From: Amoebophrya sp. A120
Lineage: Eukaryota > Protista > Dinoflagellata
DNA length: 64,000 nt
Reading direction: 5' to 3'
Assembly (NCBI GenBank): GCA_905178155.1
Contig: CAJINV010000005.1
Span: 5,154,667-5,218,666, forward strand
Shown here: positions 1,667 to 64,000 of the stretch, piece after piece
Layout: every line of letters begins with the position of its first letter
Numbering within the stretch: position 1 is the stretch's first letter
Notes under the pieces: model-generated
The model's database searches: none
What the model saw: only the letters and a program-made list of their open reading frames with translations
Told to the model about the DNA's origin: nothing
Program-made: the position numbers and the translations under genes

Positions 1667-4600
1667 ATGAAACTCGCCAACAAGAATATGAAAGCTACCT
1701 TCTTCCTCGCCGTGGCTCCGTTTGGCGAGAAGTCGGGGACGAAGATGATGATGCAGATCGTTTCCGCCGTGGAGCAGGGTAAGAAGAAGAACACTAATGG
1801 TCCGGGTCGTGCTGGTAAAAAAGCTGCTGTGCCGGTCGTCGCGCCCGGAGGAGCTTCTGGCGGCCGTGGCGCGACCACGACTATGGCGTTCTCACCTGTT
1901 ACATTCTCAACTGTTACATGGGTTTATGATGCAAGAATGGCAAAAGTCAAAGCAGGGAGGTTGCAGCTGTAGCATTACAAATTCCGCACAGATTTAGGCG
2001 CTGTTTAGCCTTTCCAAAATTTGTCATGCGAAGACGCTTCACCTTGTGAGTGTTGATGTTCGTTTTGCATTGCAAATCATGTAACAGTTGAGAATGTAAC
2101 AGTTGAGAACGCCATAACGACGCACCTGTGGGTCGGGAGCGAGTTGGCCGGGACTGCCCAGTACGAGAGTTGGAAAAGCATCGGTGACTAGTAGAAATTT
2201 TTGCATTTATAAAAAATAGTACAACAAAAATCAAATATGCTTGTTGCTCACCAGCAAAAAAAATTTCTACGTAAGATTCGTTATGCGGATCTGACCTGGA
2301 GGAAAGAGGAAGATTTCGATTTGTCATGCATAAATAGCAGTACGAATACGACTACGAGTGTGCGATACTTTTTCACAGGATACAAAGGGATTCCTGCAGG
2401 TCGACCGTGCGACTGCGGCGGAGATGAAGCGGGTTGGCGATGACGACGACGACGACAACCCGACGGAGAAGGTAGCACCTAATTCATTCCCAACCTAGCC
2501 ATCGCATTTTTCGAGACACCAAATTGAAATTCTAAGCATCACAAATAGGACTAGGTCGCGCAGACCAGCGCGAACAGCGTGAGGGCCGGAATGGGTCAAC
2601 CACCTCTGTGGCCTCATTTTTGTTCTCCCATGGCCAGCGGCCCCTGCCTACAAAAATGGTCTACGCCGTGGGATTGCAGGAACGAGGCATGCAGGCTACA
2701 CAACCTGGTAAAGAAGTCGAAGATGGCGCGCGCGCATGCTAGAGAAGCATGCGCGGCTTACTGCTCACCTCTTTTTTATGTTCACACACTACAAAGGCAC
2801 ATCCTGACGTCTATGACGCGAATATGTAGAATCTAGCGGGCTCGCAGCCCCTCTCTCCGGCGACGTGGTGGCCGAGCAAGCTATGTGAGGGCACACGCCT
2901 CCCGTAGCGAGCCGTTACGCTAGCGACCTCTGCTGGGGAGGGTCCGGGGGGATTTGTTGCAGCCTGTGTTGCGTCCGGCGCTGTTACCTCTCGGCGCAGT
3001 GCTGGAGCACGGTTCGACCCACGTCTGTGGGCGCAGAGTGCGACGTCCCGCAGCCACCTCTGTGGCGCGGGCGTTGCGGTGCGGTCCCTGTTGCGCGCCC
3101 CGCGACTGTATGTAGCTGTACATAGGACGCTGCGACGAAGCAGCGCGGGTACACTTTTATACAGAAGCCTTGTCCGCCACTGAGAAGGGTGCGGCCCTTT
3201 GTTGTTGAGAACATAGATACGGACTAGAGCTACGACCCCATGCGCCCGCAGAGCTGCGGGGATTTGGGAAGGAGTTTGCGTTCGCCTCAGTATGATAACC
3301 AAAATGCTACCCAAATCACATCAACATGAATCAGGTACCAACAGGGCGGAAGCGGGTTGGCGATGACGACGACGACGACAACCCGACGGAGACGAGGGGA
3401 GCCGTTGCATATGAAATATCAAATGGAAATATGTCTTGGTCTGGAAGGTCGCAACTTGTCATGCTGTTTTTGGATTCTAAAAAAATTAGTATTGCATGAC
3501 CAGCAAGAAAGGTCCAGTTTGTGCTACGCGGAGAGGGCATTTCTCATGCGGAAAGCGCATCAGGAAGCCCTCTAAAAGTCTGTGGTGCTAGGTCATGCAT
3601 TACAGGCATCAGGGGTCATGAGAAATATGCGTGACAAGTCTTGCATTGTTCCAGACCCAGACATATTTGCATTTGATATGAACCCAAAGCCGTGACGGAC
3701 TGGGCGCAGGAGTGTGAGGAATTGAATGCGGAGTGGAAAGAACAAGCGGGACAATGTCCTCCTGATACCGCGTCAAAAGTAGTACTCGCACACATGATCG
3801 AGAAGGACTGTCCTCATGTGAGTCCCGACGTCAACAAGTGGCCGAAAATGCTTGGCCTCGAAAAAACCGACGCGACCGAAAAATGTTACCGCCTTCTCGA
3901 AGGTTACTCTCAGTTCTCGACTCTCATCCGCGGCGTCTTCAATATGGGACTCTCAAACGTTACACTCTCAAGTGTTTGATACATGACTTGTCATGCAAAG
4001 TTAGATGTGCCATAGATAATGATAACCCTAACCCTAAGCCGCCAGACGATCTTCAAGCTGCTTCGCATGACAAATTCTCGAAGGGCTAAACAGCGTCTAA
4101 ATCTGTGTCAAATGATGTGCGTCGCGAGAGCTGCAAGCATGTCCCTTAATATCTCACTGGTGCCTGCACCTGCTGTTGTTGCGTGACGAAAACAAATGGA
4201 TCGAACAGTTGGGACTGTAACGTTTGAGAGCTCTTGTCCCATACTCTAAGGCGGCATGTTGTTGAGCGCAGATACTTATGCATTGCAAAAGTATCGCACT
4301 CGTATAAATGCATTACAAATTTCCTCAGCATGAGAATTTGCAATGCTGATTTACCTGAAGCTGAAGAAAAAGACTTGTAATGCATGATTGCAATACGAGC
4401 GCGATACTTTTGCACAGGATAATACCAAGCTCATCCGCAACGTGACCGGCGACTCCGCCCCTTCCCCGGATCTGAGCGCTTGGGACGCTATCGCGAAACA
4501 CAAATCGGTGATCGACATGATCGAGGCCAAGAAAGAAATGTACCAGCTGTACATCGACCACTGGAAATTATGCCGTGTAAAAACATTTAAGTTTAACATT

Positions 4601-5013
4601 GCCACCCCAGAGTTGTCATACACGTCTGCAAGCCTCAGAGTCAGACGTTTCTCATGCGCAACCCCATGAGGAGCACTCTGTAATGCTGTCTGGCAGTTTG
4701 TCATGCTAGAATCAGGATCATGCCGCTACAATTATGTTGGCTAAAAAACGCGAGTTGTACACTCTGAGCCCAAAATTGTCATGCGCGACAGCCAAAAGAT
4801 GCTAGTTTATGTAGTAAAGTCACCATGATCTTGAGGACTATGGGGTGGGGACGTTTTTGCTCAGGATAGAAATGCGCGGAGCTGGGAAACGGCTGGCCGA
4901 AGGCCGAGGACTTTGTGGAAGACATCAATTTTCCCAGCAGCGAAATCGGCCAGGCCTGGGAAAAATACGTTGCCGATGCCGTGGCGGGTCTCGACAATTA
5001 TTTTACCAACTAA
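1667..5013 (+). CDS. Hypothetical protein; multi-exon gene interrupted by 6 introners and an 879-bp direct-repeat-flanked insertion (possibly a pseudogene)
   Basis: Removing 1882-2116, 2162-2382, 3417-3678, 3943-4243, 4277-4421 and 4569-4868 (each plus one 5-bp TSD) and the 2470-3392 insert gives one frame: MKLANKNMKATFFLAVAP...THLWVGSELAG...VDRATAAEMKRVGDDDDDDNPTETRGAVAYE...AVTDWAQECEEL...YIDHWKCAELGNGWPKAEDF...LDNYFTN*. No recognised domain. Confidence 0.65.
1882..2116. mobile_element. Introner family F (type copy; ~235-300 bp; TIR TATGGCGTTCTCAMCTGTTACATTCTCAACTGTTACATG)
   Basis: TSD ACGAC. Other copies: 3943-4243, 32514-33516 (expanded by an insert), 62607-62852. Confidence 0.92.
2426..3392. 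mobile_element. 879-bp insertion flanked by a perfect 44-bp direct repeat
   Basis: GAAGCGGGTTGGCGATGACGACGACGACGACAACCCGACGGAGA at 2426-2469 and 3349-3392, inside a coding exon. Confidence 0.7.
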
Positions 5014-6289
5014 ACATGTTGTTGAACTTAAACTTATTTACTTTTTTCGCTTCAGAATCAATCTTTCTCGCGATCTATTCCACCTCCGGTTTCAAGAGTA
5101 CACTTTTTTTGTTTTTGTTTACAGCTGCACATGTTGTTTCAATTTAATATTTCATTTCATACATGTATGTCAATCACCAGTTGGGTATTACTCATTTATT
5201 CATTCACTCGTCCACATGACAGCGATGCCTTTTGGTATTTATTGGGAAAACGAAAAGAATCTTACTCATCCACCATAATCCGCAAGATAGAAGCACAAGA
5301 ACCTGACAACTCCAAAAATGTAAATGTTAGTGCCTGTAGCTGTGCCGACGTACTTTCTTGCGACGGAGAGGGAGAGCTAGTACTTAGCAGTGTAAGAACT
5401 GCAACTGCCGTCAGCTTTCTCTCTCCTGTCGCAGCAGATTAAAGTGCTGTCCAGCCGTTGTACTAACAGAGTCGCGTATGTTGATACTGCAGTGGTTCTT
5501 TTTACAATTCACAGATCAAAGCTGCGTCTTCCCGCTCCAGCAGGAGAACAACAATAACGGCACACCAGTTACAAGAAGTTATTCGAACTTTTATCGCATA
5601 TAATTGCCGCTTGAGGATCGTCTTGTTTCAGGCAGGAATCTTGTCCCGCGGAGCTGTGGTGGTTCACGCGTACATTCTTTCCACACGAAAAATTGTTCCA
5701 CATTCATCTTTCCACATCTTGGTTCGATGGCGCTTTCCGCCTTTCAATCACTGTGCTGTAGATCATTATGTTGCTCCTGTCACGGAGGCGGAATAGCAAG
5801 AAGTCCTCGGGATCTTCTATGAAAAAAACGAAAAGTTTTCACCTCCCGTCGCTCTTGCTGCTGGATCTTCCCTGCGATAGTACTGATCGAAGCATATTAG
5901 AGTTCTTGTTGAAATGAATTCTTTGGTTAGAAATACCGCTTGATGCTGTTGTGCTTTTCGTTTCTGATTGGATTTTTTGGATCATACACTAATAGCGTTT
6001 ACTGATAGGTTACCTGTTTTCTGTAGTCGAAGAAAGAACTTGATAAGGGCAGTTCCTTCTCCTGCGGGCGCCGGTTTTGCGTAGCCTTCGTTTCGAGGTG
6101 GATTGCGCAAGAAGTGCTGGAAGCATTCACCCTCGTCATATGTTTTCCATGATGGCAGTTCGTGGTTAGTATGAAAATGTGTACAACGGTCATGAGCCAT
6201 AGATAATAAATAGCATCGATCGTGGTCCAGCATGAGCAATTAGAAGTGCGTTGAGTATACAAATTACCTTCGGCAAGTAGATGTAAAAG

Positions 6290-7080: not shown

Positions 7081-10000
7081 GAATAAAGTGTCCAGCCGTT
7101 GTACTAACAGAGTCGCGTATGTTGATACGACTCGGGATTTTGATGTGCTACTTGTGCAAGGACGCGGGCAAAATTTCGCCCCGGATTTTTGAACATCTTG
7201 AAGATTTGGATGGTTGGGTAAGACCAAAAAAAAATTTCTTCCTCGGAGGACGACCTCTTGCATTTCTCAAGGAGGATGCAAGTGGCACGGTGAAAAATGT
7301 CGATTTTCAGAAATTTTTCTGTTGTTCACAGTTTGTCGTGCTTCCTGTGTATTGTTTCACAGACGGTTCAATTAGTTTTAGTGTTACAACTACCGTGTAC
7401 TTACCTTGTACTTTTTTTTGTTTTTCTACTCTGGCAGCTGAGGACGCGCTAGTAGTAAGTTCTCTCGCAGGTGCACCTCCTTGTTTTTCGACGGTCGTGC
7501 GAAATTTCTCTCACTTCGGTACAGGTTTCTATTTTAAGAAGCGCACACGTCATTCTATCTTTCTGCGCCCTCCCGTCGTTTTATGATTTATTAATACAAA
7601 TTTGTCACATCGATAGATTTTTGCTACGAGGTTTTTTCTTCATCTTCACCCAAGTTAGAAGACTACTGTCGTTTTGATTCTGTAATAGTGCAACTGCAAC
7701 AAATAGTACGTAGGTAAATTTTCTGAATCAGCAACAGCAACGACACGAGATGTTCACCTCTAGAACCCTGATCTCAGGTTCCGAAGACGCAGGGCCTCTG
7801 CTCGGCCCAACAAGTACGATGTTGTCCGACAGTCCTCCATTGAGACCGGGTTCAAACGATCCAGACCCGGATCCTCTTCTACGTGAAGATTTTCCTTGCA
7901 CCAGACCAACAGCACATGGGGCTCCCGAAGCCGCAAATGCGAAAAATGCAAAAAGGAAGAACACCAGCACGAGCACTAGCAGCTTGGGAGCGGCTACTAC
8001 TGGAGGTTCTTCTTCCTACAGCGGCCCAAGTAGGACATTGTCGTCTTCAACATCGTCGACTGGTGCGGGGTTGAGCAATGATAACAAACACCAGCGCATT
8101 ATCAAATGCAAATAAGTCTGGGTCTGGAAACTTGTGATGCTGAATTGTGGATGACTGAAATACTTCCCAATGCAGCTAAGCATGACAAGTTTCCCGCACA
8201 CTTTTGCATGCGCATTCCGCATGAAAAACTGCGCTTTTGTATGACAAAAGGAGGTATCTTCTTGCTAGTCATGCAACACAGATTTTACAGGAGTGCAGGA
8301 CTAGCATTACAAGTTCCATGCTTTCAGACCCAGACATATTTGCAATGCATACGCATTCTGAATTACCCGCTCACGCCGGAAGTTGGCCCAAGGGAAGTTG
8401 TGCTCCTAGAAGCTCCACCGATCGAGAAATTCGACGTAGCAACAAGACCCGACGGAGAAACGGGCGTGCTGGAACATGATAGGGAACAGCATCACGCCGG
8501 TATAATATCTTCAAACCAGGGCGGAGGAGGAGGAGGAGCATATCAGCATAATGGAAATGAGGGTCTTGTGGCAGGACCACGAGGAGCATCTTCTTCAAGA
8601 ACACATGAGCTGCGGAAGAATACTTCTAGTACGACGAGCATAAAAGATCTGTACAACGTCGTTCCAGCATCATCTGTGAATGATGATAAGCCCCAACAGA
8701 CGATGAAAACTCGCAAGCCGCGACATTCCTGGAGCGTGCACAACTATGACCCGCTCAGGTGTCAACTTACAGGCTACGTAAACGTTTACAATAGATGAAC
8801 ATGCAAGTCTGTGATGCAAAAGGTGATGCAAAAGGTAGCCTACTTGTACTCCTGCAGAAGTGCGCATGACAAGTTCTGGAGTTGTCCCAAACGACCGCAC
8901 TAGAATCGTGCGAAATTTGATTGTATTGCAGAAAGTGGAACGTTGTGCGAGTCTGTCATGCTCGTCATCATGCAATACAAAACGCAGACTCTATTGGAAC
9001 GCTTGAGATTGTAGTAACGTTTGAGCAGGTCATAACAACCTCCGGGATTTTCTTGCTGACGAGGAAGAAGTGGACTCGGATTCCTACACCCGCATTTATG
9101 GCCTGCTCAAGTTGTGTTACAATCTGTGATGCAAAAGGTGCATGATCCATCATCCTCTTCTCACAGGAGAGTGCATCACAAGTTCGGGACGAGTACTTCT
9201 TACCAAACCGCACTAGAATCATCCGGCTAAATTTGTATTGCAAAAAGCGGAACTACACGGCTCTGTGTGTCTCTTATGCTGATCAAGCAACACAAAATCC
9301 AGACACAGATTCTGTGTACTGTAACCACGTCTGAGATTTTTGTAATAGCTGAGCAGGTTATAGCATTCCCACCGCGTTTTTCTCTACTTCGTTGACATCG
9401 GAAGATGACGACCATAACAAATTCGACGATATTAGTCTTTTTCGCAGCTACGCTGCCGAGGACCCTCACGCGGCACTCTCCCCCTCTAGCCGAACAGGAC
9501 ATCATAACCCGGCCTCCTCAAGTAGCAGGCAGCAGCGCATGGCTATCCTATGTAAAAACGTCCCCAACCCATAGTCAAGATGGGGAATCGGCTACACAAA
9601 TCTACAAGTTTTGGCTGCTTTGCATGACAAATTTGGATTCGTAGTGTCGTGCTGTTTGAGCTAGCTCAGCAGCGTCACAGATCTAGTACATCAGGCTGAT
9701 TGAAGCATGACAGATTCCAAAACACGCCTAAACAATGCCTCTCATGGGGCTCCGCATGAGAAACAGTTTCAGCATGCAGATTTGCAATACAAATACAACT
9801 ATGGGGTGGGGACGTTTTTCAATACGATAATGGCCATGGCCTCCTTGCTCCTGGACCGGTGGCGTTTCGAGGTTCTATGACAATGCACAACTCCCCCTCG
9901 TCCCCCTCATTTGTCATGCAAAATACCAATTATACATCCCTTTCCCTTAAGCACTGCTTGCATGACAGGCTCCGGAAGCTGAAACAGCACTAGAATCGGT

Positions 10001-13000
10001 CGCTGATTTGTCATGCAAAAGCTGGATTTATGCCAGCACTTGTGTTGCTGCTTATGCACTTCAAATGAGGGGGGGGGTTGTGGACTCTCATAGGTTCCGT
10101 ACGGCACGTACAAACGCATCGCACTGTTTCTCGCCATTGAGTCAGAGATTGAACCAGAGTGCGGCGACTTTTGTTTTTGCATTTGCAAACAGGACGTCGA
10201 GAGCTCATAATTAGCCGCAGCTTTCGTGTGGATACAAATAGAATAAAGTGTCCAGCCGTTGTACTAACAGAGTCGCGTATGTTTAATATACGACTCGGGA
10301 TTTTGATGTGCTACTTGTGCAAGGACGCGGGCAAAATTTCGCCCCGGATTTTCGAACATTCATTTTGAAGATTTGGATGGTTGAGTAAGACCAAAAAAAG
10401 ATTCCTTCCTCGGAGGACGACCTGTTGCATTTCTCAAGGAGGATGCAAGTGGCACGGTGAAAAATGTCGATTTTCAGAAATTTTTCTGTTGTTCACAGTT
10501 TGTCGTGCTTCCTGTGTATTGTTTCACAGACGGATTACGGTGTATTTACCTTGTTGCACTTTTTTTGTTTTTCTACTCTGGCAGCTGAGGACGCGCTAGT
10601 AGTAAGTTCTCTCGCAGGTGCACCTCCTTGTTTTTCGACGGTCGTGCGAAATTTCTCTCACTTCGGTACAGGTTTCTATTTTAAGAAGCGCACACGTCAT
10701 TCTATCTTTCTGCGCCCTCCCGTCGTTTTATGATTTATTAATACAAATTTGTCACATCGATAGATTTTTGCTACGAGGTTTTTTCTTCATCTTCACCCAA
10801 GTTAGAAGACTACTGTCGTTTTGATTCTGTAAAAGTGCAACTGCAACAAATAGTACGTAGGTAAATTTTCTGAATCAGCAACAGCAACGACACGAGATGT
10901 TCACCTCTAGAACCCTGATCTCAGGTTCCGAAGACGCAGGGCCTCTGCTCGGCCCAACAAGTACGATGTTGTCCGACAGTCCTCCATTGAGACCGGGTTC
11001 AAACGATCCAGACCCGGATCCTCTTCTACGTGAAGATTTTCCTTGCACCAGACCAACAGCACATGGGGCTCCCGAAGCCGCAAATGCGAAAAATGCAAAA
11101 AGGAAGAACACCAGCACGAGCACTAGCAGCTTGGGAGCGGCTACTACTGGAGGTTCTTCTTCCTACAGCGGCCCAAGTAGGACATTGTCGTCTTCAACAT
11201 CGTCGACTGGTGCGGGGTTGAGCAATGATAACAAACACCAGCGCATTATCAAATGCAAATAAGTCTGGGTCTGGAAACTTGTGATGCTGAATTGTGGATG
11301 ACTGAAATACTTCCCAATGCAGCTAAGCATGACAAGTTTCCCGCACACTTTTGCATGCGCATTCCGCATGAAAAACTGCGCTTTTGTATGACAAAAGGAG
11401 GTATCTTCTTGCTAGTCATGCAACACAGATTTTACAGGAGTGCAGGACTAGCATTACAAGTTCCATGCTTTCAGACCCAGACATATTTGCAATGCATACG
11501 CATTCTGAATTACCCGCTCACGCCGGAAGTTGGCCCAAGGGAAGTTGTGCTCCTAGAAGCTCCACCGATCGAGAAATTCGACGTAGCAACAAGACCCGAC
11601 GGAGAAACGGGCGTGCTGGAACATGATAGGGAACAGCATCACGCCGGTATAATATCTTCAAACCAGGGCGGAGGAGGAGGAGGAGCATATCAGCATAATG
11701 GAAATGAGGGTCTTGTGGCAGGACCACGAGGAGCATCTTCTTCAAGAACACATGAGCTGCGGAAGAATACTTCTAGTACGACGAGCATAAAAGATCTGTA
11801 CAACGTCGTTCCAGCATCATCTGTGAATGATGATAAGCCCCAACAGACGATGAAAACTCGCAAGCCGCGACATTCCTGGAGCGTGCACAACTATGACCCG
11901 CTCAGGTGTCAACTTACAGGCTACGTAAACGTTTACAATAGATGAACATGCAAGTCTGTGATGCAAAAGGTGATGCAAAAGGTAGCCTACTTGTACTCCT
12001 GCAGAAGTGCGCATGACAAGTTCTGGAGTTGTCCCAAACGACCGCACTAGAATCGTGCGAAATTTGATTGTATTGCAGAAAGTGGAACGTTGTGCGAGTC
12101 TGTCATGCTCGTCATCATGCAATACAAAACGCAGACTCTATTGGAACGCTTGAGATTGTAGTAACGTTTGAGCAGGTCATAACAACCTCCGGGATTTTCT
12201 TGCTGACGAGGAAGAAGTGGACTCGGATTCCTACACCCGCATTTATGGCCTGCTCAAGTTGTGTTACAATCTGTGATGCAAAAGGTGCATGATCCATCAT
12301 CCTCTTCTCACAGGAGAGTGCATCACAAGTTCGGGACGAGTACTTCTTACCAAACCGCACTAGAATCATCCGGCTAAATTTGTATTGCAAAAAGCGGAAC
12401 TACACGGCTCTGTGTGTCTCTTATGCTGATCAAGCAACACAAAATCCAGACACAGATTCTGTGTACTGTAACCACGTCTGAGATTTTTGTAATAGCTGAG
12501 CAGGTTATAGCATTCCCACCGCGTTTTTCTCTACTTCGTTGACATCGGAAGATGACGACCATAACAAATTCGACGATATTAGTCTTTTTCGCAGCTACGC
12601 TGCCGAGGACCCTCACGCGGCACTCTCCCCCTCTAGCCGAACAGGACATCATAACCCGGCCTCCTCAAGTAGCAGGCAGCAGCGCATGGCTATCCTATGT
12701 AAAAACGTCCCCAACCCATAGTCAAGATGGGGAATCGGCTACACAAATCTACAAGTTTTGGCTGCTTTGCATGACAAATTTGGATTCGTAGTGTCGTGCT
12801 GTTTGAGCTAGCTCAGCAGCGTCACAGATCTAGTACATCAGGCTGATTGAAGCATGACAGATTCCAAAACACGCCTAAACAATGCCTCTCATGGGGCTCC
12901 GCATGAGAAACAGTTTCAGCATGCAGATTTGCAATACAAATACAACTATGGGGTGGGGACGTTTTTCAATACGATAATGGCCATGGCCTCCTTGCTCCTG

Positions 13001-16000
13001 GACCGGTGGCGTTTCGAGGTTCTATGACAATGCACAACTCCCCCTCGTCCCCCTCATTTGTCATGCAAAATACCAATTATACATCCCTTTCCCTTAAGCA
13101 CTGCTTGCATGACAGGCTCCGGAAGCTGAAACAGCACTAGAATCGGTCGCTGATTTGTCATGCAAAAGCTGGATTTATGCCAGCACTTGTGTTGCTGCTT
13201 ATGCACTTCAAATGAGGGGGGGGGTTGTGGACTCTCATAGGTTCCGTACGGCACGTACAAACGCATCGCACTGTTTCTCGCCATTGAGTCAGAGATTGAA
13301 CCAGAGTGCGGCGACTTTTGTTTTTGCATTTGCAAACAGGACGTCGAGAGCTCATAATTAGCCGCAGCTTTCGTGTGGATACAAATAGAATAAAGTGTCC
13401 AGCCGTTGTACTAACAGAGTCGCGTATGTTTAATATACGACTCGGGATTTTGATGTGCTACTTGTGCAAGGACGCGGGCAAAATTTCGCCCCGGATTTTC
13501 GAACATTCATTTTGAAGATTTGGATGGTTGAGTAAGACCAAAAAAAGATTCCTTCCTCGGAGGACGACCTGTTGCATTTCTCAAGGAGGATGCAAGTGGC
13601 ACGGTGAAAAATGTCGATTTTCAGAAATTTTTCTGTTGTTCACAGTTTGTCGTGCTTCCTGTGTATTGTTTCACAGACGGATTACGGTGTATTTACCTTG
13701 TTGCACTTTTTTTGTTTTTCTACTCTGGCAGCTGAGGACGCGCTAGTAGTAAGTTCTCTCGCAGGTGCACCTCCTTGTTTTTCGACGGTCGTGCGAAATT
13801 TCTCTCACTTCGGTACAGGTTTCTATTTTAAGAAGCGCACACGTCATTCTATCTTTCTGCGCCCTCCCGTCGTTTTATGATTTATTAATACAAATTTGTC
13901 ACATCGATAGATTTTTGCTACGAGGTTTTTTCTTCATCTTCACCCAAGTTAGAAGACTACTGTCGTTTTGATTCTGTAAAAGTGCAACTGCAACAAATAG
14001 TACGTAGGTAAATTTTCTGAATCAGCAACAGCAACGACACGAGATGTTCACCTCTAGAACCCTGATCTCAGGTTCCGAAGACGCAGGGCCTCTGCTCGGC
14101 CCAACAAGTACGATGTTGTCCGACAGTCCTCCATTGAGACCGGGTTCAAACGATCCAGACCCGGATCCTCTTCTACGTGAAGATTTTCCTTGCACCAGAC
14201 CAACAGCACATGGGGCTCCCGAAGCCGCAAATGCGAAAAATGCAAAAAGGAAGAACACCAGCACGAGCACTAGCAGCTTGGGAGCGGCTACTACTGGAGG
14301 TTCTTCTTCCTACAGCGGCCCAAGTAGGACATTGTCGTCTTCAACATCGTCGACTGGTGCGGGGTTGAGCAATGATAACAAACACCAGCGCATTATCAAA
14401 TGCAAATAAGTCTGGGTCTGGAAACTTGTGATGCTGAATTGTGGATGACTGAAATACTTCCCAATGCAGCTAAGCATGACAAGTTTCCCGCACACTTTTG
14501 CATGCGCATTCCGCATGAAAAACTGCGCTTTTGTATGACAAAAGGAGGTATCTTCTTGCTAGTCATGCAACACAGATTTTACAGGAGTGCAGGACTAGCA
14601 TTACAAGTTCCATGCTTTCAGACCCAGACATATTTGCAATGCATACGCATTCTGAATTACCCGCTCACGCCGGAAGTTGGCCCAAGGGAAGTTGTGCTCC
14701 TAGAAGCTCCACCGATCGAGAAATTCGACGTAGCAACAAGACCCGACGGAGAAACGGGCGTGCTGGAACATGATAGGGAACAGCATCACGCCGGTATAAT
14801 ATCTTCAAACCAGGGCGGAGGAGGAGGAGGAGCATATCAGCATAATGGAAATGAGGGTCTTGTGGCAGGACCACGAGGAGCATCTTCTTCAAGAACACAT
14901 GAGCTGCGGAAGAATACTTCTAGTACGACGAGCATAAAAGATCTGTACAACGTCGTTCCAGCATCATCTGTGAATGATGATAAGCCCCAACAGACGATGA
15001 AAACTCGCAAGCCGCGACATTCCTGGAGCGTGCACAACTATGACCCGCTCAGGTGTCAACTTACAGGCTACGTAAACGTTTACAATAGATGAACATGCAA
15101 GTCTGTGATGCAAAAGGTGATGCAAAAGGTAGCCTACTTGTACTCCTGCAGAAGTGCGCATGACAAGTTCTGGAGTTGTCCCAAACGACCGCACTAGAAT
15201 CGTGCGAAATTTGATTGTATTGCAGAAAGTGGAACGTTGTGCGAGTCTGTCATGCTCGTCATCATGCAATACAAAACGCAGACTCTATTGGAACGCTTGA
15301 GATTGTAGTAACGTTTGAGCAGGTCATAACAACCTCCGGGATTTTCTTGCTGACGAGGAAGAAGTGGACTCGGATTCCTACACCCGCATTTATGGCCTGC
15401 TCAAGTTGTGTTACAATCTGTGATGCAAAAGGTGCATGATCCATCATCCTCTTCTCACAGGAGAGTGCATCACAAGTTCGGGACGAGTACTTCTTACCAA
15501 ACCGCACTAGAATCATCCGGCTAAATTTGTATTGCAAAAAGCGGAACTACACGGCTCTGTGTGTCTCTTATGCTGATCAAGCAACACAAAATCCAGACAC
15601 AGATTCTGTGTACTGTAACCACGTCTGAGATTTTTGTAATAGCTGAGCAGGTTATAGCATTCCCACCGCGTTTTTCTCTACTTCGTTGACATCGGAAGAT
15701 GACGACCATAACAAATTCGACGATATTAGTCTTTTTCGCAGCTACGCTGCCGAGGACCCTCACGCGGCACTCTCCCCCTCTAGCCGAACAGGACATCATA
15801 ACCCGGCCTCCTCAAGTAGCAGGCAGCAGCGCATGGCTATCCTATGTAAAAACGTCCCCAACCCATAGTCAAGATGGGGAATCGGCTACACAAATCTACA
15901 AGTTTTGGCTGCTTTGCATGACAAATTTGGATTCGTAGTGTCGTGCTGTTTGAGCTAGCTCAGCAGCGTCACAGATCTAGTACATCAGGCTGATTGAAGC

Positions 16001-50400: not shown

Positions 50401-51121
50401 ATCACAAATCTTCGGAAGTACATGTTTTCCATATGGGGAGGGGGGATTTTTCCTTACGATACCTGGGGCCGGGGTTTGAGAATCGGCTCTTCGATCGCAT
50501 TCGCCAGCTGTACAGGTTGCAGAGAATCAACAACGAAGTCAACAGCGCGAGGACTTCCGTTAGTGAAGATGGACGAGGTGGTCTGACACATTATGGCGCA
50601 TCAAGATTAGACCACCCGCGATCTGATGATGTCATGCAGGGCGAGGCACCAGACAATCCTTCTGTGAGGATGCAGACTGAGAAGCAAGATGATTACAACG
50701 ACATCATGAAATATGGAAAGAAATCAGTTTGTCACAGTCACTAACGTGCAGGCTTTGCATGAGAAATTTTTCCAGCATCACAGGTTTTTTCTTGTATTGC
50801 AGAAACACTAGGGAAATCCCTCATGAAGTTCGGCTGTGATGCATTTTTACGCATGGCAGACAGTTTTGTATTGCAAAAATGCGCATGAGTGATCGTGACG
50901 AACTTTTTTTGTTTGATATGAAAGAACCTGCTCCAATAAAGCCCAAACTTCTCCACTGGGCCGGGGAAAACCGGAAGCCCTGGGAGCGTGTGCATTTCTA
51001 CAGTCGGAATGAGTTCGATAAGTTGTGGTGGCTCGAGTACGAGGTAATGATGTCCTACAGCAGCGGTTCTGGAGCTCATTCTCACGCTCGACCAATAAGG
51101 TGCGAAGTCGACGACACGTGA
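35471..51121 (+). CDS. Large glycosyltransferase family 8 (glycogenin-like) protein; about 39 introners and one GT-AG intron (38542-38702)
   Basis: A continuous frame after removing elements contains GT8 motifs in order: KFAFLTVLW...YIDAVRTLAHS...FLVIV (~42990-43270), MWNMTEFDALVYLDADTLLVEPIDELF (DxD, ~44160-44585), YINIACMVVRPDTEVF (~45210-45260), CLLDHAYN (~49020-49360), KPKLLHWAGENRKPW...LWW (~50940-51030). Confidence 0.85.
39759..39918. mobile_element. Singleton introner
   Basis: TSD ATCCG, imperfect TIR, internal GCATGACAA/TTGTGATGC motifs; removal restores the frame (NHIR|RRIRE). Confidence 0.75.
41719..41904. mobile_element. Singleton introner
   Basis: TIR TATCACACAGAAAAAAGCCGGCAGG / CCTGCCAGCTTTTTTCTCTGGGATG; TSD CGAAG/CGAAA; frame restored. 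Confidence 0.75.
46390..46667. mobile_element. Introner family C (type copy; ~280-350 bp; TIR TATCCTGAGTAAAAACGTCCCCACCCC)
   Basis: TSD CATGA. Other copies: 4569-4868, 9544-9829 (+array copies), 21405-21683, 23284-23564, 24383-24681, 28131-28426, 31033-31321, 45287-45589, 62938-63285. Confidence 0.93.
46746..47053. mobile_element. Introner family I (type copy; ~310-350 bp; TIR TATTRCAATGAAAAATGCCCCCACCCC)
   Basis: TSD TGGCA. Second copy at 30425-30773. Confidence 0.85.
47442..47656. mobile_element. Introner family E (type copy; ~215-235 bp; TIR TATGACAGTGCACAACTCCCCCTC)
   Basis: TSD GCATG. Other copies: 9876-10092 (+array copies), 23611-23842, 29833-30065, 43747-43982. Confidence 0.92.
50140..50461. 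mobile_element. Introner family H (type copy; ~320-335 bp; TIR TATCNNANGGAAAAATCCCCCCTCCCCATAT)
   Basis: TSD CCTGG. Other copies: 29207-29526, 37466-37786, 43301-43622, 44218-44552. Confidence 0.9.
50712..50918. mobile_element. Singleton introner
   Basis: TAT...ATA ends, TSD TGAAA, shared 9-mer motifs; frame restored (DIMK|EPAPIKPKLLHW). Confidence 0.8.
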
Positions 51122-53686: not shown

Positions 53687-56210
53687 ATGTGCTGCCATCG
53701 CGACGGTGAGACGACCACAGCGGGCGAGGAGGAGAAGAGTAGCATGACCTACCGCAACTCGGCGGGGCGTACGGAGCGGCTCTCTTCTAGCCGCGAACTG
53801 CGGGGGTCCATCGAGTCGGATTCTACCTACTCCAGCTACTCCTCTGAGGCCCTGCCGTACGACGAGGATTTGGTTGTCATCTCGAACAAGCTATGAAATG
53901 CAAAAGTATCGTACTCGTAGTAATTGCATTTATGCATTACAAATCGCTTTGTCGAGGTAAATCAGGATTACAAATTTGATTTGTATTGCTTGGCTAACTT
54001 GTAATGCAATTTATACGAGTAGTATGCTTTTGCAATGCATACAAGCACGTTGGGTGCTGCTACTGCCTGAACACCACGGTGTGGCTCTTGCTGGGGGGGT
54101 ATCAAATGCAAAAATGTCTGGGTCGGGAAGAGCCAAACTTGTGATGCTGCATTTGGATGCTAAAAAAAGCTGTATTGCATGACCAGCAAGAGAATTCAAA
54201 TTTGGCTACGCGGAGAGGGCATTTCTCATGCTGGATGCGCATAGATAAGCGCTCAAAACATCGGTGATGTTATGGCATACATCACAGACATCATGGATCA
54301 TGGAAAATGTGCATGACAAAGTTGTGCTCTTCCAGACCCAGACACTTTTGCATTTGATAGTGGGTTGGAGATGTTCATTTTCTGGTGCCTTGCCGGCCTG
54401 GCTTGCGCCCTCAGCATCGTGGGATTTTCCTGGGCCAAGAAGTGCTTCAGCATTGCCTGCATCGTTCTCATGCCGTGGAAAAAGTCGGGCCGCGGGGTCG
54501 TCTATCAAATGCAAATATGTCTGGGTCTGGAAACTTGTGATGCTGTTTGGCGCATAATCATGTGGACGCCTTCATTGACAGCCAAGCATGACAAGTTTCC
54601 GAGTCACTATAATGTTGCCTATCCGCATGACAAACTGCGTTTCTGCATTCGAGAGAAGTGTGGCTTTATTTGGGTGGCGTGCATGACAGACTTGAGAGCC
54701 ATGCTAGCCGTGCATGACAAGCCTTGCATTCTTCCAGACCCGGACATATTTGCAATGCATATCGTCAAGAAGCACATTTACTACATCCGGAACGTGCGCT
54801 ATCGCAAGAAAAAACTGTTTCACTGTATTAAACTTGTGATGCATGGAATGCAACGCAGACGCATTTGTCTTGCTACTCATGCAAGACATTGTCTTTTTCA
54901 ATGTGTTTTCCCTTAGGTAGTACGCATGGCAGGTTTATTCCCTTGTCATGTGTAACGAACTTGTAATGCAAAAGTTGCAAAGTCCTCACAGTGAAACAGT
55001 TTTTTCTCACGATATGCGCCCAAATTACTGCGGGATTTTCATGTGGTACGTGTTTCCGCTGTGTGCTCTATCAAATGCAAAAATGACTTGGTCTGGAAGA
55101 GTGCAGACATTTGTGATGCAGTTTTTGCCTAGCCCAGATCGTCTGGCATGCAAGCCCTAGCATCACAGATTCCGAGCAGATATAATCCCAATGCCTAATC
55201 CGCATGAAAAGTGCCGCCTTTCTGTAACAGGAAGCGAGGCCTTTTGCTGACCATGCATGACAGATTTTGTCATGATGTAGAATTCGCATTACAAATTCGA
55301 ATCCTTCCAGAGCCAGACATATTTGCAATGCATATGCTCCGATCCTGAGCATTCTGCACCTGGTGTTTGCCCTCTTGAACCTGCTCACGCTGATCGGCAT
55401 TCCCTTTATCAAGTGCAAAAATGTCTGGGTCTGGAAGAGTCCGTGTTTGTCATGCTTGTCTGGAGTGACTCTTAAATCTGTCATGCACGTTACCCAAACG
55501 CCCCATTTATCTGTGATGCAGAATCACAGTTTGTCATGCAGAATAGGCAACACCTAGAAGCTCAGAAACTTGTCATGCTGAGCCAGCACTTGTGGCCTCA
55601 TCATGAGACGCCACCCAGCATCACAAGTTTCCAGACCCAGATATTTTTACATTTGATTCCCTTCGCCTACCAGCATTTCAAGTGGGCCGCGATGGTGTGG
55701 CGGTGCGGGGCCATCGCGCTTACCCTCGATATCAATTGCAAATACTGAATATCCCCCCTTGATGCTGTAGTGGTGGTCTGGAACAAGAACATTTATTTTG
55801 CCACACCACTTGTCGTTGTCCACCTCACATGCAGCTCATCTGCTGGCGCGGACAGGAAAAAAAGACCTGTCATCGACATGTAACGCTACCGCGCTATTCT
55901 TTTGTGATGCAAAAACGATGTTTCTTTGATGTGTTTCTCATGCATTTTACGCAAGTGACCTAGGCTTAGCACTAGCTGCTCAGAAATTTGTCAACTACAT
56001 GCGTGTCCTCGGCCCCATGAAAATATTGGAGGTTGGTTGTTAAGTATGATGCGCATCAAAGTCAAAGAAACTAGCACGACAATCGTTTAATATTCCAGAC
56101 GTCCAGGGGGATAGTACTTATTTGCACTCTCGATACTCGAGGAGGCCGAGCAACTGACTGGGAGCTACGCGAAAGCGGGATACGACTCCGAAGAAAATGA
56201 TGACTACTAA
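53687..56210 (+). CDS. YccF-domain (DUF307, inner-membrane-component) protein with two repeats; 7 introners
   Basis: Reconstructed LNTTVWLLLGGLEMFIFWCLAGLACALSIVGFSWAKKCFSIACIVLMPW and ILSILHLVFALLNLLTLIGIPFAYQHFKWAAMVW match the YccF repeat pattern (W...GG ... TIIGIPFA.QH.K). Ends ...EENDDY* at 56210. Confidence 0.8.
54800..55014. mobile_element. Introner family G (type copy; ~205-230 bp; TIR TATCGCAAGAAAAAACTGTTTCACTGT)
   Basis: TSD TGCGC. Other copies or relatives: 30123-30329, 35669-35876, 35952-36181, 40471-40679, 47925-48133, 48490-48699, 60114-60322. Confidence 0.9.
55730..56135. mobile_element. Diverged, expanded A-like introner (406 bp)
   Basis: TAT...ATA ends, TSD CTCGA, decayed TIR; frame restored (LTLE|EAEQ). 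Confidence 0.75.
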
Positions 56211-58199
56211 GAATGTAGTATCAAATGCAAAAATGTCTAGACGTCTGGAAGGTTGGAACTTGTGATGCTAACTTTGGACTCTACAAAAATCTGTATTGCA
56301 TGACGGACCAGCAAGAGGAGTCTACTGTTTGTGCTACGCAGGGAGGGCTGCATTTGTCATGCGGCGTGGGTACTATCAGGAAGCCCTCTAAATAAAATCT
56401 GTGATGCTAGGTCGTGCATTACAGACATCCATCCTGGGTCATGCAAAATATGCATGACAAACCCGGCAACATTCCAGACCCAGACGCTTTTGCGTTTGAT
56501 ATGTAGTGTAGTAGTACTTACTACAACCGAAGCGACGACGAGGAGAGCGACTGAGAAGAGACGACTCGCCTAGGAACTACTGCTACAAAAAAACGCGGAA
56601 AAGAATATTATGGATTCAATCATTCAAGTTATTGTTCATCTTCATACGCAAGTAGATCAAGTCCGCCGGCGCAGCACCATCAATCCGGAAGTTGTACCAG
56701 ACCTCCACTCGGATTTTTTACTATTTTCACCAGATGTACCACTACATCAAACGACTGAGCAGCAGCAGCAGTCCACCAAAGTGCATAGTTTACTAATGTC
56801 TGTGTTATCTAAAAGTAGTTCTACTAAGTGCAGCGGACTGTTCTGAAAATGAATTAAAGAGCAGGTTCATTTTATTTTGGTTTTGCATTTTACTTTTTGT
56901 TTTTTATACATTTAACATTTTCATCATCCATTATTGTAAAAATTGTTCTACGAAAATAGAGTAGCGAAGATTTTGAATATCCTTATAATTGCCTATATAA
57001 TTAAGTTTAAAACTCACTACACGAATGTTCTTGTAAGTATGTTTTCGGTTTTTTAGCATTGAAGACGAAGAGGAGAATTTTTTGCACTTTTGTTCCCGCT
57101 TGCCTGCGAGATTTTATACCTGAATACTACTTCAATCAGCTTCAGAAGTCGCCGCTGAATGTGTTGTCTTCGTGGTGGCTGCTTACTGAAATATAGTACT
57201 TCCGTCGAGGCGCGGCAGGGAGGACCACCTGAAGCAACGTACAAACAAGCTGCGTCGAGGTTGTAGTGTCGATGGTACTATCATCTCGAGGAAAGTTGGG
57301 TAAGAAGTCATTCGAGTAGAAACAATAAACAAAGTACTTTGTACCAGCTAAAAATGTCACTAAATTTTGTATTGCCGGCAAATTGTTTATACGACCGGCG
57401 CTCCTGAGCAAGAGACTATCAGGCAGCAGTGTCCGCTAGCGAGGAGGACGTGCAGATCATGGACCACTTACAAGACACAAAATGCAAACAGCATCAAGCG
57501 GCCTGTTGCCCGCAGCTGCGCGCATTGAATAAAGACCGTGGTTGTGATTCAGATTGTAATCGACCCGAGGAGTGGTCCAACTTGTTGTACTAGCGAAAAC
57601 ACATTTGAAGACGATGCTGCTGCCATCAGGATGAACTGTACATTCATAAAACTACCGGCGAGCCACGGCGGAGGGAGCGGTCGATTGTTTTGGAGACCAC
57701 TAGCGTGACGCCGACCTTCCGTGAGTACAGGGAGGACAGACACCTCCTAAGTTGTTCGAAAGATCGTGAAAGGCCACGGAAGATGGTGCAGCGGGTTCTT
57801 CGGCTTCCCTCACGACCCTTTTGGTGCATCGTTGAGTGGTTCGTTTTCCCAGTAGTCGTGACCACAGGTGCATCAAATACAAAACAGTGCCAGAAGTCGG
57901 GCAAATGAATACGAGGGTGCAGCTGGGACGTACTTGTAGTTACCCCAAGCAAGCAAATAAGCAAGGAACCACAGTGGAGGGCGTTGTAGTATCTCTGTCT
58001 GAAAAATCCGATTCCTAGCTCTTGGTCTTGACTCCAAAAGTAGACGTAGCATGTCGCATTTGCATTGCAAAGCAGCGAGCATAAAGAACGCCCGACCTGT
58101 GCCTGTCATCCTGGCGCAAGGCAAGGGCTCTTGCAATTATATGGCAAGCGAAAAATAGATAAGATCGGTAATGGTACGACGGCTCACTGTCACTCGGTC

Positions 58200-60004: not shown

Positions 60005-63000
60005 ATGTTTTCGCAAGTGAAGAAAACCTCGGGCCTTTTGGCCACTGTTCTGACCGCGGGGGAGCTTCCTCACCCGGGTGCGGGACTTCTTGTACTAGAG
60101 CAGGAACAGCAGGCATCCCACGAAAAAACTGTTTCACTGTGGTGATTTTTGACGATCTGCATCACAAGTTTGTTACACATGACACAGAAAACCTGCCATG
60201 CGCACTTCCCCAGGGAAAACACGCTTAAAAATCCAATGTCTTGCAGGTGTAACAAGATAAATAGTTCTGTGTTCCATTCTATGCATCACAAGTTCACAGT
60301 GAAACAGTTTTTTCTTGCGATAGCAGGAGATGGAAAACACCAAGGCCCCTCAACCGCCGCCGGGGATCATGCGTGTACTCGGCAAATTTGGTCCTTGGGC
60401 GATGAAAAACATTGCTGACATGAAGGCGGCGATCGTGGAGCGGCAAGTGGTGGAGAAAATCATATCAAATGCAAAAATTTCTGGGTCTGGGAGATTGCGA
60501 GATTTGTCATGCTAGTCTGGCATGCGCATGGCTCTCAAGTCTGTCATGCGCGCCACCCAAAAGCCACATTTCTATGTCATGCAGAAACGCAGTTTGTCAT
60601 GCAGATAGACAAGACTATAGCTTAGCAACCCCAAAACTTGTCATGCTTGGCTGTCAATGAAGGCGTCCACATGATTCTCCAAACAGCATCACAAGTTTCC
60701 CAGACCCAGACATATTTGCATTGGATAAATCAAGGACAAGTACCAGACATTTCACGAAGACAACATGGAGTTCATTTCTAGCGGGCTCCTATGGATTGCA
60801 AAAATGTCTGGGTCTGGAAGAATGCAGGAGTTTGTCATGCAGATTTTGCATGACCCATGAGGTCTGTGATGCATGCCCTAGCATCAGAGATTTTGCGAGG
60901 GCTTTCTGATGCTCATACCGCATGAGAAATGCCCTCTCCGCGTAGCACAAAATACACCTCTTTTGCTGTTCATGCAATACAGATTTGACGTAGAGTCCAG
61001 AGGTAGCATCACAAGTTGCATCCTTCCAGACCCAGACATTTTTGCATTTGATAGCTCCTGGGAAACGAGAATTGGACGGGGCTACAGCCGGGCACGATTG
61101 TTCTGGGGAAAACTACCCTCGCCGGCGCGGCCCATATGCATTGCAAAAGCATCGTACTAGTAGAAATCACATTACAAATTCGGCCAGCATGACAAATGGA
61201 ATTTGTCATGCTGTTTTGCCTTGAAAAAGAGATTTGCAATGCATAAATGCAATTACTACGAGTACGATACTTTTGCAATGCATAGCCCAGGGGCCGGTGC
61301 AAGATGCATTCCCGAATTACGACGTCTACAAGGTGGTGGTATCCTGTGCAAAAGTTGTATCGTACTCGTACTACTTGCAATCTTGCATGACAAACTTACC
61401 TTTTTAGCTGAATTAGCATTACAAATTCCATTTTTCTTTCTGATAAAATTTGTAATGCAATTTATACTACTAGTACGATATTACTTTTGCAATGCATAGG
61501 TGGAAAATAACGGCAACGTCGGTGACGCGGTCAAGTTCTTGCCCGTGTTCCGTCATTATCAAATGTAAAAATGTCTGGGTCTGGAAGAATGCAAGACTTG
61601 TGATGCAGGTTTTCCATGACCCATGAGGTCTGGAATGCGAGACCCAGCATGACAGATTTTTTGCGGTCTCTATCATGCCCTTCCTGCATGAGAAACTCCC
61701 TCTCAACTTGGTCAGAAGCGGACAGCTTTTGGTACTCACGCAACACAGATTTTTGCGTCATTCAGATTTAGCACGACAAGTTCCAACCTTCCGGACGTAG
61801 GCCGGATCATCCCCCTCAAGATAAGATCACCCCCCTCAAGTTTCCAAGATCACCCCCCTCAAGGGCATAGGGTTTAGGTTTTAGGGCTTAGGGGGTAGGG
61901 TTTCGGCGGTGTCGTCTGGGCCAGCCGTCGCGACGGCGCCGTCGCGACGGCTGGCCCAGACGATTCCCTCTTTCCTGTTCCGGGCCCGGGGCACGCACCG
62001 CCGTGCCGCCCTCGCCCCCCCCTTTGTTTGTTTCCCCTTCCCTTCCCCCTTCATTGGTTTGCCGTGACCCGGCTCGGGGGCGGGGACACGCTCACTGTGC
62101 CGCCTTTGTTGCCTCGGGGGGCGAGGCGCTAGGCGCTCCCGGGCTTCCTCGGGTGGCTGCCCGCCTGTGGCACATCTTGAGCCAGGAAACCTATTGGAAG
62201 GCCTTCCAGCAAATAGACACCAACGCCGCCCCGCCCTGCCCCCGGTCTGCCTGCCGCCGGCCCGCCTGCCCTTGTCCCCCCCCGTAGCCTGGCTGCCTGC
62301 CCCTGGCCTCGCTCGTGGCCCCCTTCCTACCTTCCTGCCCCTGGCCCACCCCCTGGCCCCCCTCAACCCCCCCCCCTGCATCTTGAGGGGGGTGATCCTT
62401 GGGGGGATGATCCTGCCTATGTCCCAACCTTCCAGACCCAGACATTTTTGCACTTGATAGTCATCCCAACCCGGACACCAACGGCGCGGCGCCACTTGTT
62501 CTCCCGACGGGGCCCCCGGTGGGTGAACAGTCGCCCGTTGGGGATGCGGCGACGCCGTTCGAGCTGCCGGATGACATGCAGCTGTTCGAAATGCCTCGCG
62601 CCACCTTATGGCGTTCTCAAACGTTACAGTCTCAGCTGTTACATGAATTTGTAATGCAAGAATGGCAAAAGCAAAAGGGGGAAGATAAAGATTGCAAAAA
62701 TTGCATGAGGACAAATCCCGCGCAGATCTAGGTGCTGTTTAGCCCTTCGCAAATTTGTTATGCGAAGCCGTTTGATCTTGTGGATGATGGTGGTAGTTCT
62801 GCATGACAAATGCATGTAACAGCTAAGAGTGTAAACGTTTGAGAACTCCATACACCTCCAAGTTCCGGGCCATGGTGCGAGCGAAGGACGAGAAAAAATC
62901 CGGGCTTTACTGGGTTACCGTGCCCGGTGACGCGGGTTATTCTGAGTAAAAACGCCCCCACCCCAGAGTTGTCCCAAAGTTCGAAACTTCTCTGTGCTTT

Positions 63001-63348
63001 AAATTTGGTCTTTTCCAGTACATAAAACACCCCAGAGTTGTCATGCAAATCTGCATGCCAAAAAAGTTTCTCATGCGGAGCCCCATGGGAAGCATTTTCT
63101 AGTCGTCTTTTGGAGTTTGTGATGCGAGAATCAGCATGATGTGCTAGATCTGTGATGCTGCTGAACTAGAAAAACAGGATCACACTATGAGGGCAAACTT
63201 GTCATGCGAAACAGCGAAAGCTGGTTGCTTTGTCTAGCAGATTTCTCATCTTGACTCCAGTGTGGGGACGTTTTTACTCAGGATACGGGTGAAGATCTCA
63301 CCTTCGCGCCGGACTTCACGTTCGAGCAGGTTACGGCGTCTCTCTTGG
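60005..63348 (+). CDS. Hypothetical protein, 5' part (3' end not in the window); 9 introners
   Basis: In-frame joins across all elements: MFSQVKKTSGLLATVLTAG...EKIKDKYQTFHEDNMEFISSGLLGNENWTGLQPGTIVLGK...YDVYKVVENNGNVGDAVKFLPVFRHPNPD...KSGLYWVTVPGDAGEDLTFAPDFTFEQV. Confidence 0.7.
61793..62424. mobile_element. Non-autonomous TIR element with 9-bp TSD (Mutator-like), nested in an introner
   Basis: Left end GGACGTAGGCCGGATCATCCCCC versus right end reverse complement GGACATAGGCAGGATCATCCCCC; subterminal GATCACCCCCCTCAAG repeats; perfect TSD CAACCTTCC at 61784-61792 and 62425-62433. Confidence 0.85.
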
Positions 63349-63479
63349 TATGAATTGCAAAAGTATATAATCTTGCTAGTAGAAAAAATCGCATGACAAA
63401 TTTTCTCAGCATGAGAACTGGAATTTGTAGTGCGGGTTTACCCAAAGAAAAAGATTTGTAATGCATGACTGTAATAATT

Positions 63480-64000
63480 AGAGAAAGTGACGCTGTGAGA
63501 CCCAGAAATCAATGGACTCCGCCCGTGCGGACTCGTTTCAGGTTTCCCGGGAAACCTTCGGCTTAGCTCGTGCTAAAGTGTGTTGCAACGCAACTTAAAA
63601 CGCGGCGCGCGCATGGACTCCGCTGCTGTTTGTGGGCACAACCGCGCCGCGTCTGTGTTGCAGTCTCTTGTGCCCAAAGCGCCGCAGTCGGCTGCGGATT
63701 GCGAGCAACCTGGCGGCCCCGGCAAACCGGCGCACATTTTCGCCTGGCCTAACTTGGGCCGCTTCAGACGATCTTCCGCCGGTGGCACGGCCTCGCTTTG
63801 CCGTTTTCGGAAGAGGATTCCTCAGAGGATTCCAAAATCCTCTCAGGAATCCTCTGGCCCAATTTGGGCCGTCTTCCGCGCCCTTCCCCCGATGGCACTG
63901 CCCCGATTTCGGGAGAGGTTTCCACAGAGGATTCCTCAGAGGATTCCTCAGAGGATTCCAAAATCCTCTCAGGAATCCTCTGGCCCAATTTGGGCCGTCT
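63480..64000. repeat. GC-rich repetitive insert interrupting a B-family introner; runs off the window
   Basis: The B element starting at 63349 lacks its right TIR. Tandem GAGGATTCCTCA units and a duplicated ~50-bp block occur at ~63822-63872 and ~63950-64000. Confidence 0.55.

Follow-up and report, generated by a model that had tools for sequence, protein, structure and literature searches.

The genes in a 64,000-nucleotide stretch of Amoebophrya sp. A120 (contig CAJINV010000005.1, positions 5,154,667 to 5,218,666; called the window below, with positions counted from its first letter) are interrupted by about 100 transposon-like elements, most of which start with TAT, end with ATA and lie between two copies of a 5-bp target site duplication (TSD). 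These elements are likely to be removed from transcripts at one common cut for all copies, as introns of the form N-TAT...ATA-NNNN. Three of their end bases, U at intron position +2, A at +3 and A at position -7 from the 3' end, hereafter A(-7), are conserved by transcript strand. The single cut register and the strand-polar end bases are what is new here.

Elements, transcripts and the cut register

A strict search, which required an exact 5-bp duplication flanking TAT...ATA and complementarity at 15 or more of 30 terminal bases, gave 69 elements from 80 candidate pairs, far above the 0.75 per window of a shuffled control (20 shuffles). A scan with strict termini together with BLAST, hand-placed and script-refined, added 36 further elements with imperfect ends or duplications, so that the total of 105 agrees with the roughly 100 TAT...ATA elements with 5-bp TSDs claimed in an earlier note on this DNA. 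They represent 86 independent sites, since 15 elements are copies from a 3147-bp tandem array and 4 are common to a paralogous gene, and base-by-base counts in the window use 90 non-redundant elements. The duplication is exact in the 69 strict and in 10 of the 36 relaxed elements, the weak ones among the latter being 2162 (terminal inverted repeat [TIR] 6/30, TSD 3/5), 63349 and 3943 (TSD 3/5 each). Element length ranges from 128 to 1003 bp with a median of 256 (102 of the 105 between 128 and 350 bp), and elements make up 43% of the window. The strict elements fall into 13 BLAST clusters (8 with at least two members), with TAT at both ends in most elements and A at positions 11 to 14, and families are present in both orientations.

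Removal of each element with one duplicate produces open + strand frames in all gene models. The longest, 1604 amino acids (aa) across 32 elements, is obtained when element length plus five nucleotides (L+5, or the frame-equivalent L+2 and L+8) is removed, whereas removal of L+0, 1, 3, 4, 6, 7 or 9 leaves a frame of at most 486 aa, and the restored frame described in the earlier note is thus confirmed. Transcript contigs came from four runs of one sample, the RNA label of which is a guess; joints were examined on 20900-31600 (15 of the 25 listed) and gaps between transcript pieces on 35400-51400. All 12 element joints among the 15 skip exactly L+5, the remaining three being GT-AG introns, and two more elements in the same stretch are matched by L+5 sums. 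Transcript-piece gaps on 35400-51400 equal the predicted L+5 sums for 19 elements, all within the 32 of the 1604-aa frame. Exact L+5 loss was therefore seen for 33 of the 105 elements (13 singly, 20 in sums), as had been predicted, and at every one of the 33 with RNA support in this sample. Since the same contigs also lack the three GT-AG introns, they are spliced cDNA (complementary DNA). They cover five gene models in the two stretches examined, which contradicts one outcome that the earlier note had named as fatal to its reading, untranscribed pseudogenes, and the exact L+5 losses speak against another, the use of nearby cryptic GT-AG sites.

DNA contigs (run X1) cross elements and junctions unbroken at a depth of 23 to 33. 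The question of RNA or DNA excision is in this way answered in part, as elements stay in DNA contigs and are absent from transcripts, while rare empty sites would be compatible with contig data. The transcript runs also include contigs in which elements 22309 and 22679 are retained between their two flanks; these may be unspliced RNA or DNA. The elements in these contigs (22279-22646 and 22649-22973, among the 32 of 397 pieces listed) have weak terminal pairing (14/30 and 17/30), and in one the last base is changed, which may hint at less efficient splicing where the ends are weak. Ordinary GT-AG introns coexist with elements in the same genes, as the three seen in RNA demonstrate. The earlier claim that the ends carry neither GT/AG nor AT/AC is correct for 80 of the 90 elements but not for the other 10, each of which can be read as GT-AG, GC-AG, GA-AG or AT-AC in one or another equivalent register.

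Where within the duplication the cut falls can be described by k, meaning how many duplication bases of the upstream (left) copy are retained; only mismatched duplications are informative about it. Joints gave k of 2 to 4 at 24383, 3 to 6 at 29207, 3 to 5 at 30425 and 1 to 5 at 31033; piece ends gave k=4 at 39505, k of at most 4 at 35952, 45287 and 49031, and k of at least 2 at 42708. The only value fitting all nine sites is k=4 (3 or 4 if 39505 is left out). Across 39505, the mRNA retains GAAA+C, and the removal sum around it is 334 (169+165). The elements most relevant to the register are as follows:

24383..24681, + strand: register-informative element, TSD GTTTT/GCTTC, k 2-4 (joint 24379-24684)
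39504..39672, + strand: register-pinning intron G-TAT...ATA-GAAG (element 39505-39668, TSD GAAAG/GAAGC; piece end 39503 in X3 and X4, two runs of one sample)
43301..43622, + strand: element starting with CAT, TSD AGAGG, GC-AG intron at k=4
60114-60322, + strand: element starting with CAT, TSD GCAGG, GC-AG intron at k=4

A metagenome scan with the TIR pattern provided 136 other loci (609 kb), the 80 listed rows of which all belong to one assembly and maybe to the same species. Among 40 imperfect sites in these loci, one was informative, L048:6418-6676 in a minus-strand gene, where a stop codon appears unless k is 4 or 5; mismatches per TSD position in the fetched loci were flat (17, 13, 12, 17 and 16) and gave no register information. 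At k=4, the 90 window elements have the donors GT (29), TT (21), CT (20), AT (18) and GC (2), and 6 end in AG. The ends are not those of U2-type GT...AG introns, as 3 of the 90 are GT-AG or GC-AG. Both window elements in which the first T is changed to C are GC-AG at k=4, for which our post hoc estimate of chance is about 1 in 2000. In Table S4 of Farhat 2021 (PMC7789003), 9 of 9 top A120 motifs begin with NT and 9 of 9 from A25 with TT, and the A25 repeats are described as starting with TTA, so that N-T-A would be common to both.

The cut might instead slide within the duplication or use nearby cryptic GT/AG sites, varying by site. Farhat 2021 terms splice sites variable relative to the hairpin (PMC7789003), the public annotation has mixed GT/GC/GA/AT and AG/AC ends, and a frame-compatible GT..AG lies within 12 nt in 31 of the 90 elements. 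We consider this improbable, given that the 33 RNA-supported removals are all L+5, that no equivalent register offers a canonical-like reading in 80 of the 90 elements and that k=4 is compatible with each of the nine informative sites; mixed annotation is also expected from aligners placing ambiguous junctions.

Strand-polar end bases and the removal mechanism

Constraint by a transposase or by base pairing alone predicts equal change at paired positions. In the 90 window elements, changes were 2 at +2, 0 at +3 and 0 at -7, compared with 6, 3 and 4 at their partners -5, -6 and +4 (2 versus 13). The polarity hypothesis was formed on these counts and then tested on the other loci, where elements were found from TIR positions 4 to 30 only in loci of at least 1.5 kb (381 distinct elements). 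A codon model trained on the window oriented 336 of them (205 by their own score and 131 by locus majority), and 45, one with an odd end, were dropped. In these 336 of the 381 elements, changes were 0 at +2, 0 at +3 and 1 at -7, versus 6 at -5, 4 at -6 and 9 at +4 (1 versus 19; p=2e-5), and the 205 with their own strand call gave 1 versus 11 (p=0.003). Placed at k=4, A is found at +3 in 426/426, T at +2 in 424/426 and A at -7 in 425/426. Given this register, the elements have the U2-type donor feature of a conserved +2U and a purine at +3, with no constraint on the first or last intron base. T-to-C changes exceed their mirror at +4/-7 and A-to-G changes exceed theirs at -5/+2, and these opposite excesses cannot both be produced by a single mutational strand bias. 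The three GT-AG introns start with GTAC, GTAT and GTAC, and among the tolerated changes at +4 the most frequent is T to C, which gives TAC. The earlier view that the ends carry no signal is incorrect in detail, as in the RNA-supported register the strand-specific +2U, +3A and A(-7) resemble a spliceosomal donor and branch point.

The reading that we favor, and to which we would give slightly better than an even chance, is a relaxed U2-type spliceosome with an NUA donor, a putative branch point at A(-7) and a 3' cut set by distance. The spliceosome would read +2U and +3A as donor, with neither the first G nor the final AG needed; a lariat would form at A(-7), and the 3' cut would be measured from it, seven bases downstream. 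Because the first and last intron bases pair during splicing (PMC13326754), losing both constraints together would be coherent, and in the 15-nt introns of Stentor a putative branch A is placed at position 10, i.e., at -6 (PMC9505925). The inner repeat (about positions 9 to 30), as a hairpin or via a bound protein, would bring the ends together, making removal independent of orientation. Any target sequence would then be restored exactly, so that exon insertions would carry little cost. With a fixed register, "no signal" is replaced by three named bases, and lariats are predicted to branch 7 nt before the 3' cut.

Three bases cannot alone locate an intron, so a further cue is needed, whether from the stem, from TIR sequence or from a protein that binds the internal motif TGTNATGC. 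Folding was strong compared with shuffles on both strands (z from -2.8 to -12.2 in 15 sampled elements), with the terminal three pairs open in the one element folded in detail. On the transcript strand, G-U and A-C mismatches in TIR positions 4 to 30 were equally frequent among elements with good stems (38/37 in 49 of 85 window elements and 240/230 in 244 of 336 others, or 278 versus 267), which gives no sign of RNA-level selection on the stem; no polarity was found at the inner TIR positions 9 to 14. The earlier description of excision as structure-guided is neither established nor contradicted by folding that is strong on both strands yet without G-U preference. The TGTNATGC motif, TGT(C/G/A)ATGC plus its reverse complement, is found in all 90 non-redundant elements, often 30 to 45 nt from each end in inverted arrangement, and 284 of its 289 matches in the window are inside elements, with none in the three GT-AG introns. 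It was considered as a branch site and set aside, being present in both orientations and absent from the GT-AG introns; it could instead be a putative transposase-binding site.

Some observations weigh against a common spliceosomal register. Only one site fixes k=4 exactly, and site-to-site variation would be compatible with the others. All window genes are on the + strand, and the polarity of the register comes from the single stop-codon case in L048. The informative contigs derive from one sample with a guessed RNA label, to which the raw-read run X9 added 8 reads. A is at -7 in one of the three GT-AG introns, the bases around A(-7) pair poorly, by inspection, with the canonical U2 GUAGUA, and A(-7) is a candidate branch point only. 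U1 was not detected in A120 by Farhat 2021 (PMC7789003), the stem showed no transcript-strand preference for G-U, and no transposase was found in the window (8 open reading frames [ORFs] by Pfam) or in the seven long candidates among the fetched loci.

The alternative that survives best keeps the RNA-level removal and the register but assigns them to an endonuclease and ligase outside the spliceosome, with distances measured from the hairpin, a scheme suspected for euglenid introns; the polar bases would then be recognition bases of that enzyme. Strong hairpins on both strands, the unconstrained first and last intron bases and the undetected U1 (PMC7789003) would suit it, and the one unpaired 5' base and four 3' bases resemble the offset of euglenid introns, with their TIR at +4..6 and -8..-6 (PMC11282704). 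We think it unlikely, if far from negligible, because the conserved bases coincide with the GTAY donor of the organism, both +2 exceptions are GC-AG, transcript-strand selection on pairing was not found and mismatches in the terminal three pairs are tolerated on one side only.

Excision from DNA, by programmed elimination or frequent transposase activity, with transcripts made from clean templates, would fit the transposon anatomy. The 15 joint rows listed on 35400-51400 (1415 more exist) are mostly cross-locus DNA joints, and contigs drop rare variants. Nonetheless, DNA contigs cross the junctions unbroken, flanked element-retaining contigs occur in the transcript runs and end-base conservation follows the transcript strand, which is unexpected for a double-strand reaction, making this explanation very improbable. 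That the genes are dead and the elements ordinary disruptive MITEs (miniature inverted-repeat transposable elements), as the few exons matching known families might suggest, is hardly credible with spliced transcripts for five gene models, a 1604-aa frame over 32 elements and 102 of 105 elements in coding spans.

Returning to the relaxed spliceosome, a more specific version, to which we give a little less than an even chance, is that it dropped the first G, the final AG and possibly U1, and that the NUA donor and branch A come from TAT...ATA ends needed by a Ginger-like transposase. If true, one three-base terminus would serve transposition and splicing in either orientation, and each exon insertion would be an instant perfect intron. 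The relaxed-spliceosome reading in general, if true, would reveal what in the GT-AG rule is dispensable for a spliceosome and how exons can be filled by a transposon at little cost.

Gene models, insertions and mobilization

The gene models and the elements within them are as follows:

1882..4868, + strand: elements 1882-2116, 2162-2382 (weak), 3417-3678, 3943-4243, 4277-4421 and 4569-4868 in two short gene models (element search, frames)
7750..19651, + strand: four tandem gene copies, period 3147 bp, five elements each (element search, frames); those of the first copy are 8100-8351, 8745-9034, 9097-9362, 9544-9829 and 9876-10092, the others lying at +3147, +6294 and +9441
20954..26331, + strand: paralogous gene with GT-AG intron 24150-24298 (transcript joints); elements 21052-21358, 21405-21683, 22309-22616, 22679-22941, 22996-23151, 23284-23564, 23611-23842, 24383-24681, 24747-24896, 24955-25210, 25530-25793, 25838-25986 and 26050-26283
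27405..31514, + strand: membrane-protein gene with GT-AG introns 27405-27570 and 29610-29766 (transcript joints); elements 27615-27866, 28131-28426, 28523-28772, 29207-29526, 29833-30065, 30123-30329, 30425-30773 and 31033-31321
32514..33855, strand unassigned: 1003-bp element 32514-33516 and element 33603-33855, both outside gene models
35471..38564, + strand: gene with elements 35669-35876, 35952-36181, 36542-36690, 36755-37061, 37150-37405, 37466-37786 and 37916-38177
38654..51121, + strand: 1604-aa frame (YLDAD motif, weakly glycogenin-like) with 32 elements from 38930-39198 to 50712-50918
53687..56501, + strand: YccF-domain gene with elements 53892-54041, 54100-54359, 54503-54761, 54800-55014, 55069-55334, 55407-55658 and 55730-56135; element 56219-56501 is just 3' of its stop
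60006..63498, + strand: gene with elements 60114-60322, 60463-60727, 60790-61053, 61135-61284, 61340-61498, 61557-62459, 62607-62852, 62938-63285 and 63349-63476 (weak)

Of the two intact motifs reported earlier, YccF was recovered by Pfam (E 2.9e-6, one exon), whereas GT8 had no Pfam match, that label being based on the YLDAD motif and on weak similarity to glycogenin (E 0.97). Pfam on single exons confirmed neither the GT8 nor the transporter identity.

The tandem array extends from about 7100 to 20400 (9959 of 10200 bases match at the 3147-bp period) and could include an assembly artifact; compared with it, the diverged paralogue at 20954 has gained some elements and is without others. At its edge, 6293-7083 resembles a truncated importin-alpha gene: an ORF with an importin-beta-binding domain (Pfam E 2.5e-9) precedes an element that begins at 6853 and breaks off near 7083, at which point the stretch 5446-5490 recurs. 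Three further stretches, 2426-3392, 51934-53079 and 58200-59210, are each about 1 kb long, GC-rich (58 to 62% GC) and flanked by direct repeats (44, 35 and 69 bp); their scanned ORFs gave no Pfam match, and they may be mobile elements of a different class or scars left by duplication. The GC-rich end of the window (63481-64000) has short tandem and inverted repeats (AGAGGATTCCTC units). An Rfam search of the window gave no match, and the TIR pattern had 0 matches in viral contigs.

The paralogue lacks element 8100 at the corresponding site, 21905, where its duplication is present only once, which indicates that the elements are insertions. Their origin as transposons, proposed in the earlier note, is supported, inasmuch as they are noncoding TIR elements inserted with a 5-bp duplication. 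No clear target preference was found for insertion. Elements inside coding spans number 102 of the 105, with 17.4 kb of target in coding spans versus 18.7 kb elsewhere; the noncoding DNA, with over half of the target bases, is nearly element-free (3 of 105), by either targeting of coding DNA or loss elsewhere. Insertion phases at the k=4 cut were 36/21/26 in the window (p=0.12) and showed a phase-0 excess in 205 fetched elements (105/47/53) that depends on the frame calls.

Spread by an integrase-like, Ginger-type transposase encoded elsewhere is what we infer for the elements. In Gozashti 2025 (PMC12130899), A120 family 38 is listed with Copia/Gypsy-like ORF homology and without the expected Ginger termini. 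At TIR position 5, T is nearly absent from both arms (1 of 842 ends), and such a symmetric constraint would be in keeping with a transposase. Of the seven long candidates, two were chance pairings that spanned several elements and four were elements with additional interior sequence but no long ORF; the last, L072:1511-2758 (- strand), has between two introner-like ends a 415-aa ORF that gave no Pfam match and may be part of an inserted retroelement. Three of the four elements with extra interior (L018:632-1465, L019:6314-6770, L035:571-1051 and L036:3862-4492) have tails of short repeats (ATC or ATGA units), like retroposed insertions, and introners may shelter other mobile elements. In the window, a 632-bp GC-rich element (61793-62424), which has inverted GG...CC ends and a duplication of 9 bp of its own, is nested in element 61557-62459, 903 nt long with the insertion, and is, by its hallmarks, presumably Mutator-like. 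The long element 32514-33516 belongs to the TATGGCGTTCTCA family, and its GC-rich interior of about 720 bp matched nothing else.

Comparison with known systems

By their anatomy, the elements belong to the A120 introner class already published by Farhat 2021 (PMC7789003), which is described there as having inverted-repeat motifs that start with TAT followed later by an A run, 3-to-5-nt direct repeats (5 bp in the example of the Fig. S19 legend), a mean length of about 240 nt and many families, validated by RNA-seq and mixed with GT-AG introns. The window elements are the same in kind, with TAT and the A run, direct repeats, removal at non-GT-AG ends and noncoding families. The borders, which that paper, in the passages concerned, calls "unknown" and "variable" with no clear splicing signature, and the machinery were left open in 2021; the register makes the excision chemistry directly testable and provides a simple re-annotation rule for introns of this type, of which roughly 30,000 are reported in A120. 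Our literature search found no publication fixing a register or proposing a branch point for A120 introns. Altogether, the earlier interpretation keeps its insertion origin and exact RNA-level loss, but the system is not new and its ends do carry signal.

The A120 families of Gozashti 2025 (PMC12130899) are likewise TIR DNA elements, of about 149, 209, 252 to 260 and 305 to 320 bp, and family 38 is listed as "Ginger, 5-bp TSD, TA/TA termini." They differ in being mostly of "Unknown" superfamily, with automated TSD calls of 2 to 6 or none and mixed annotated ends, and neither a common register nor a branch point appears in 40 of its 58 A120 rows and the accompanying passages. According to Bao et al. 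2010 (PMC2836005), Ginger2/TDD elements also have TIRs, with TSDs of 4 bp or, in TDD-4 and TDD-5, of 5 bp. Their termini are TGTNR rather than TAT (TGT was found in 3 of 381 fetched elements, all at the 3' end of the transcript), Ginger2 prefers RTATAY targets, unlike the elements here, and no integrase was found in the window elements.

Introns of Fritillaria borealis are similarly transposon derived, with TIR, TSD, non-GT-AG ends and exact removal; in them, AG-AC and AG-AT prevail, U1 is kept and the U2 spliceosome has been shown to be needed, whereas the first and last bases are free in the window (PMC13326754, PMC11282704). Euglenid introns resemble those of the window in a TIR hairpin offset toward the 3' end, TSD-like repeats and noncanonical junctions (PMC11282704). 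However, they have CAG/CTG at +4..6/-8..-6 and prefer a pyrimidine|purine junction, while the terminal consensus of the window is different, with NUA and A(-7) in place of CAG/CTG and no junction preference.

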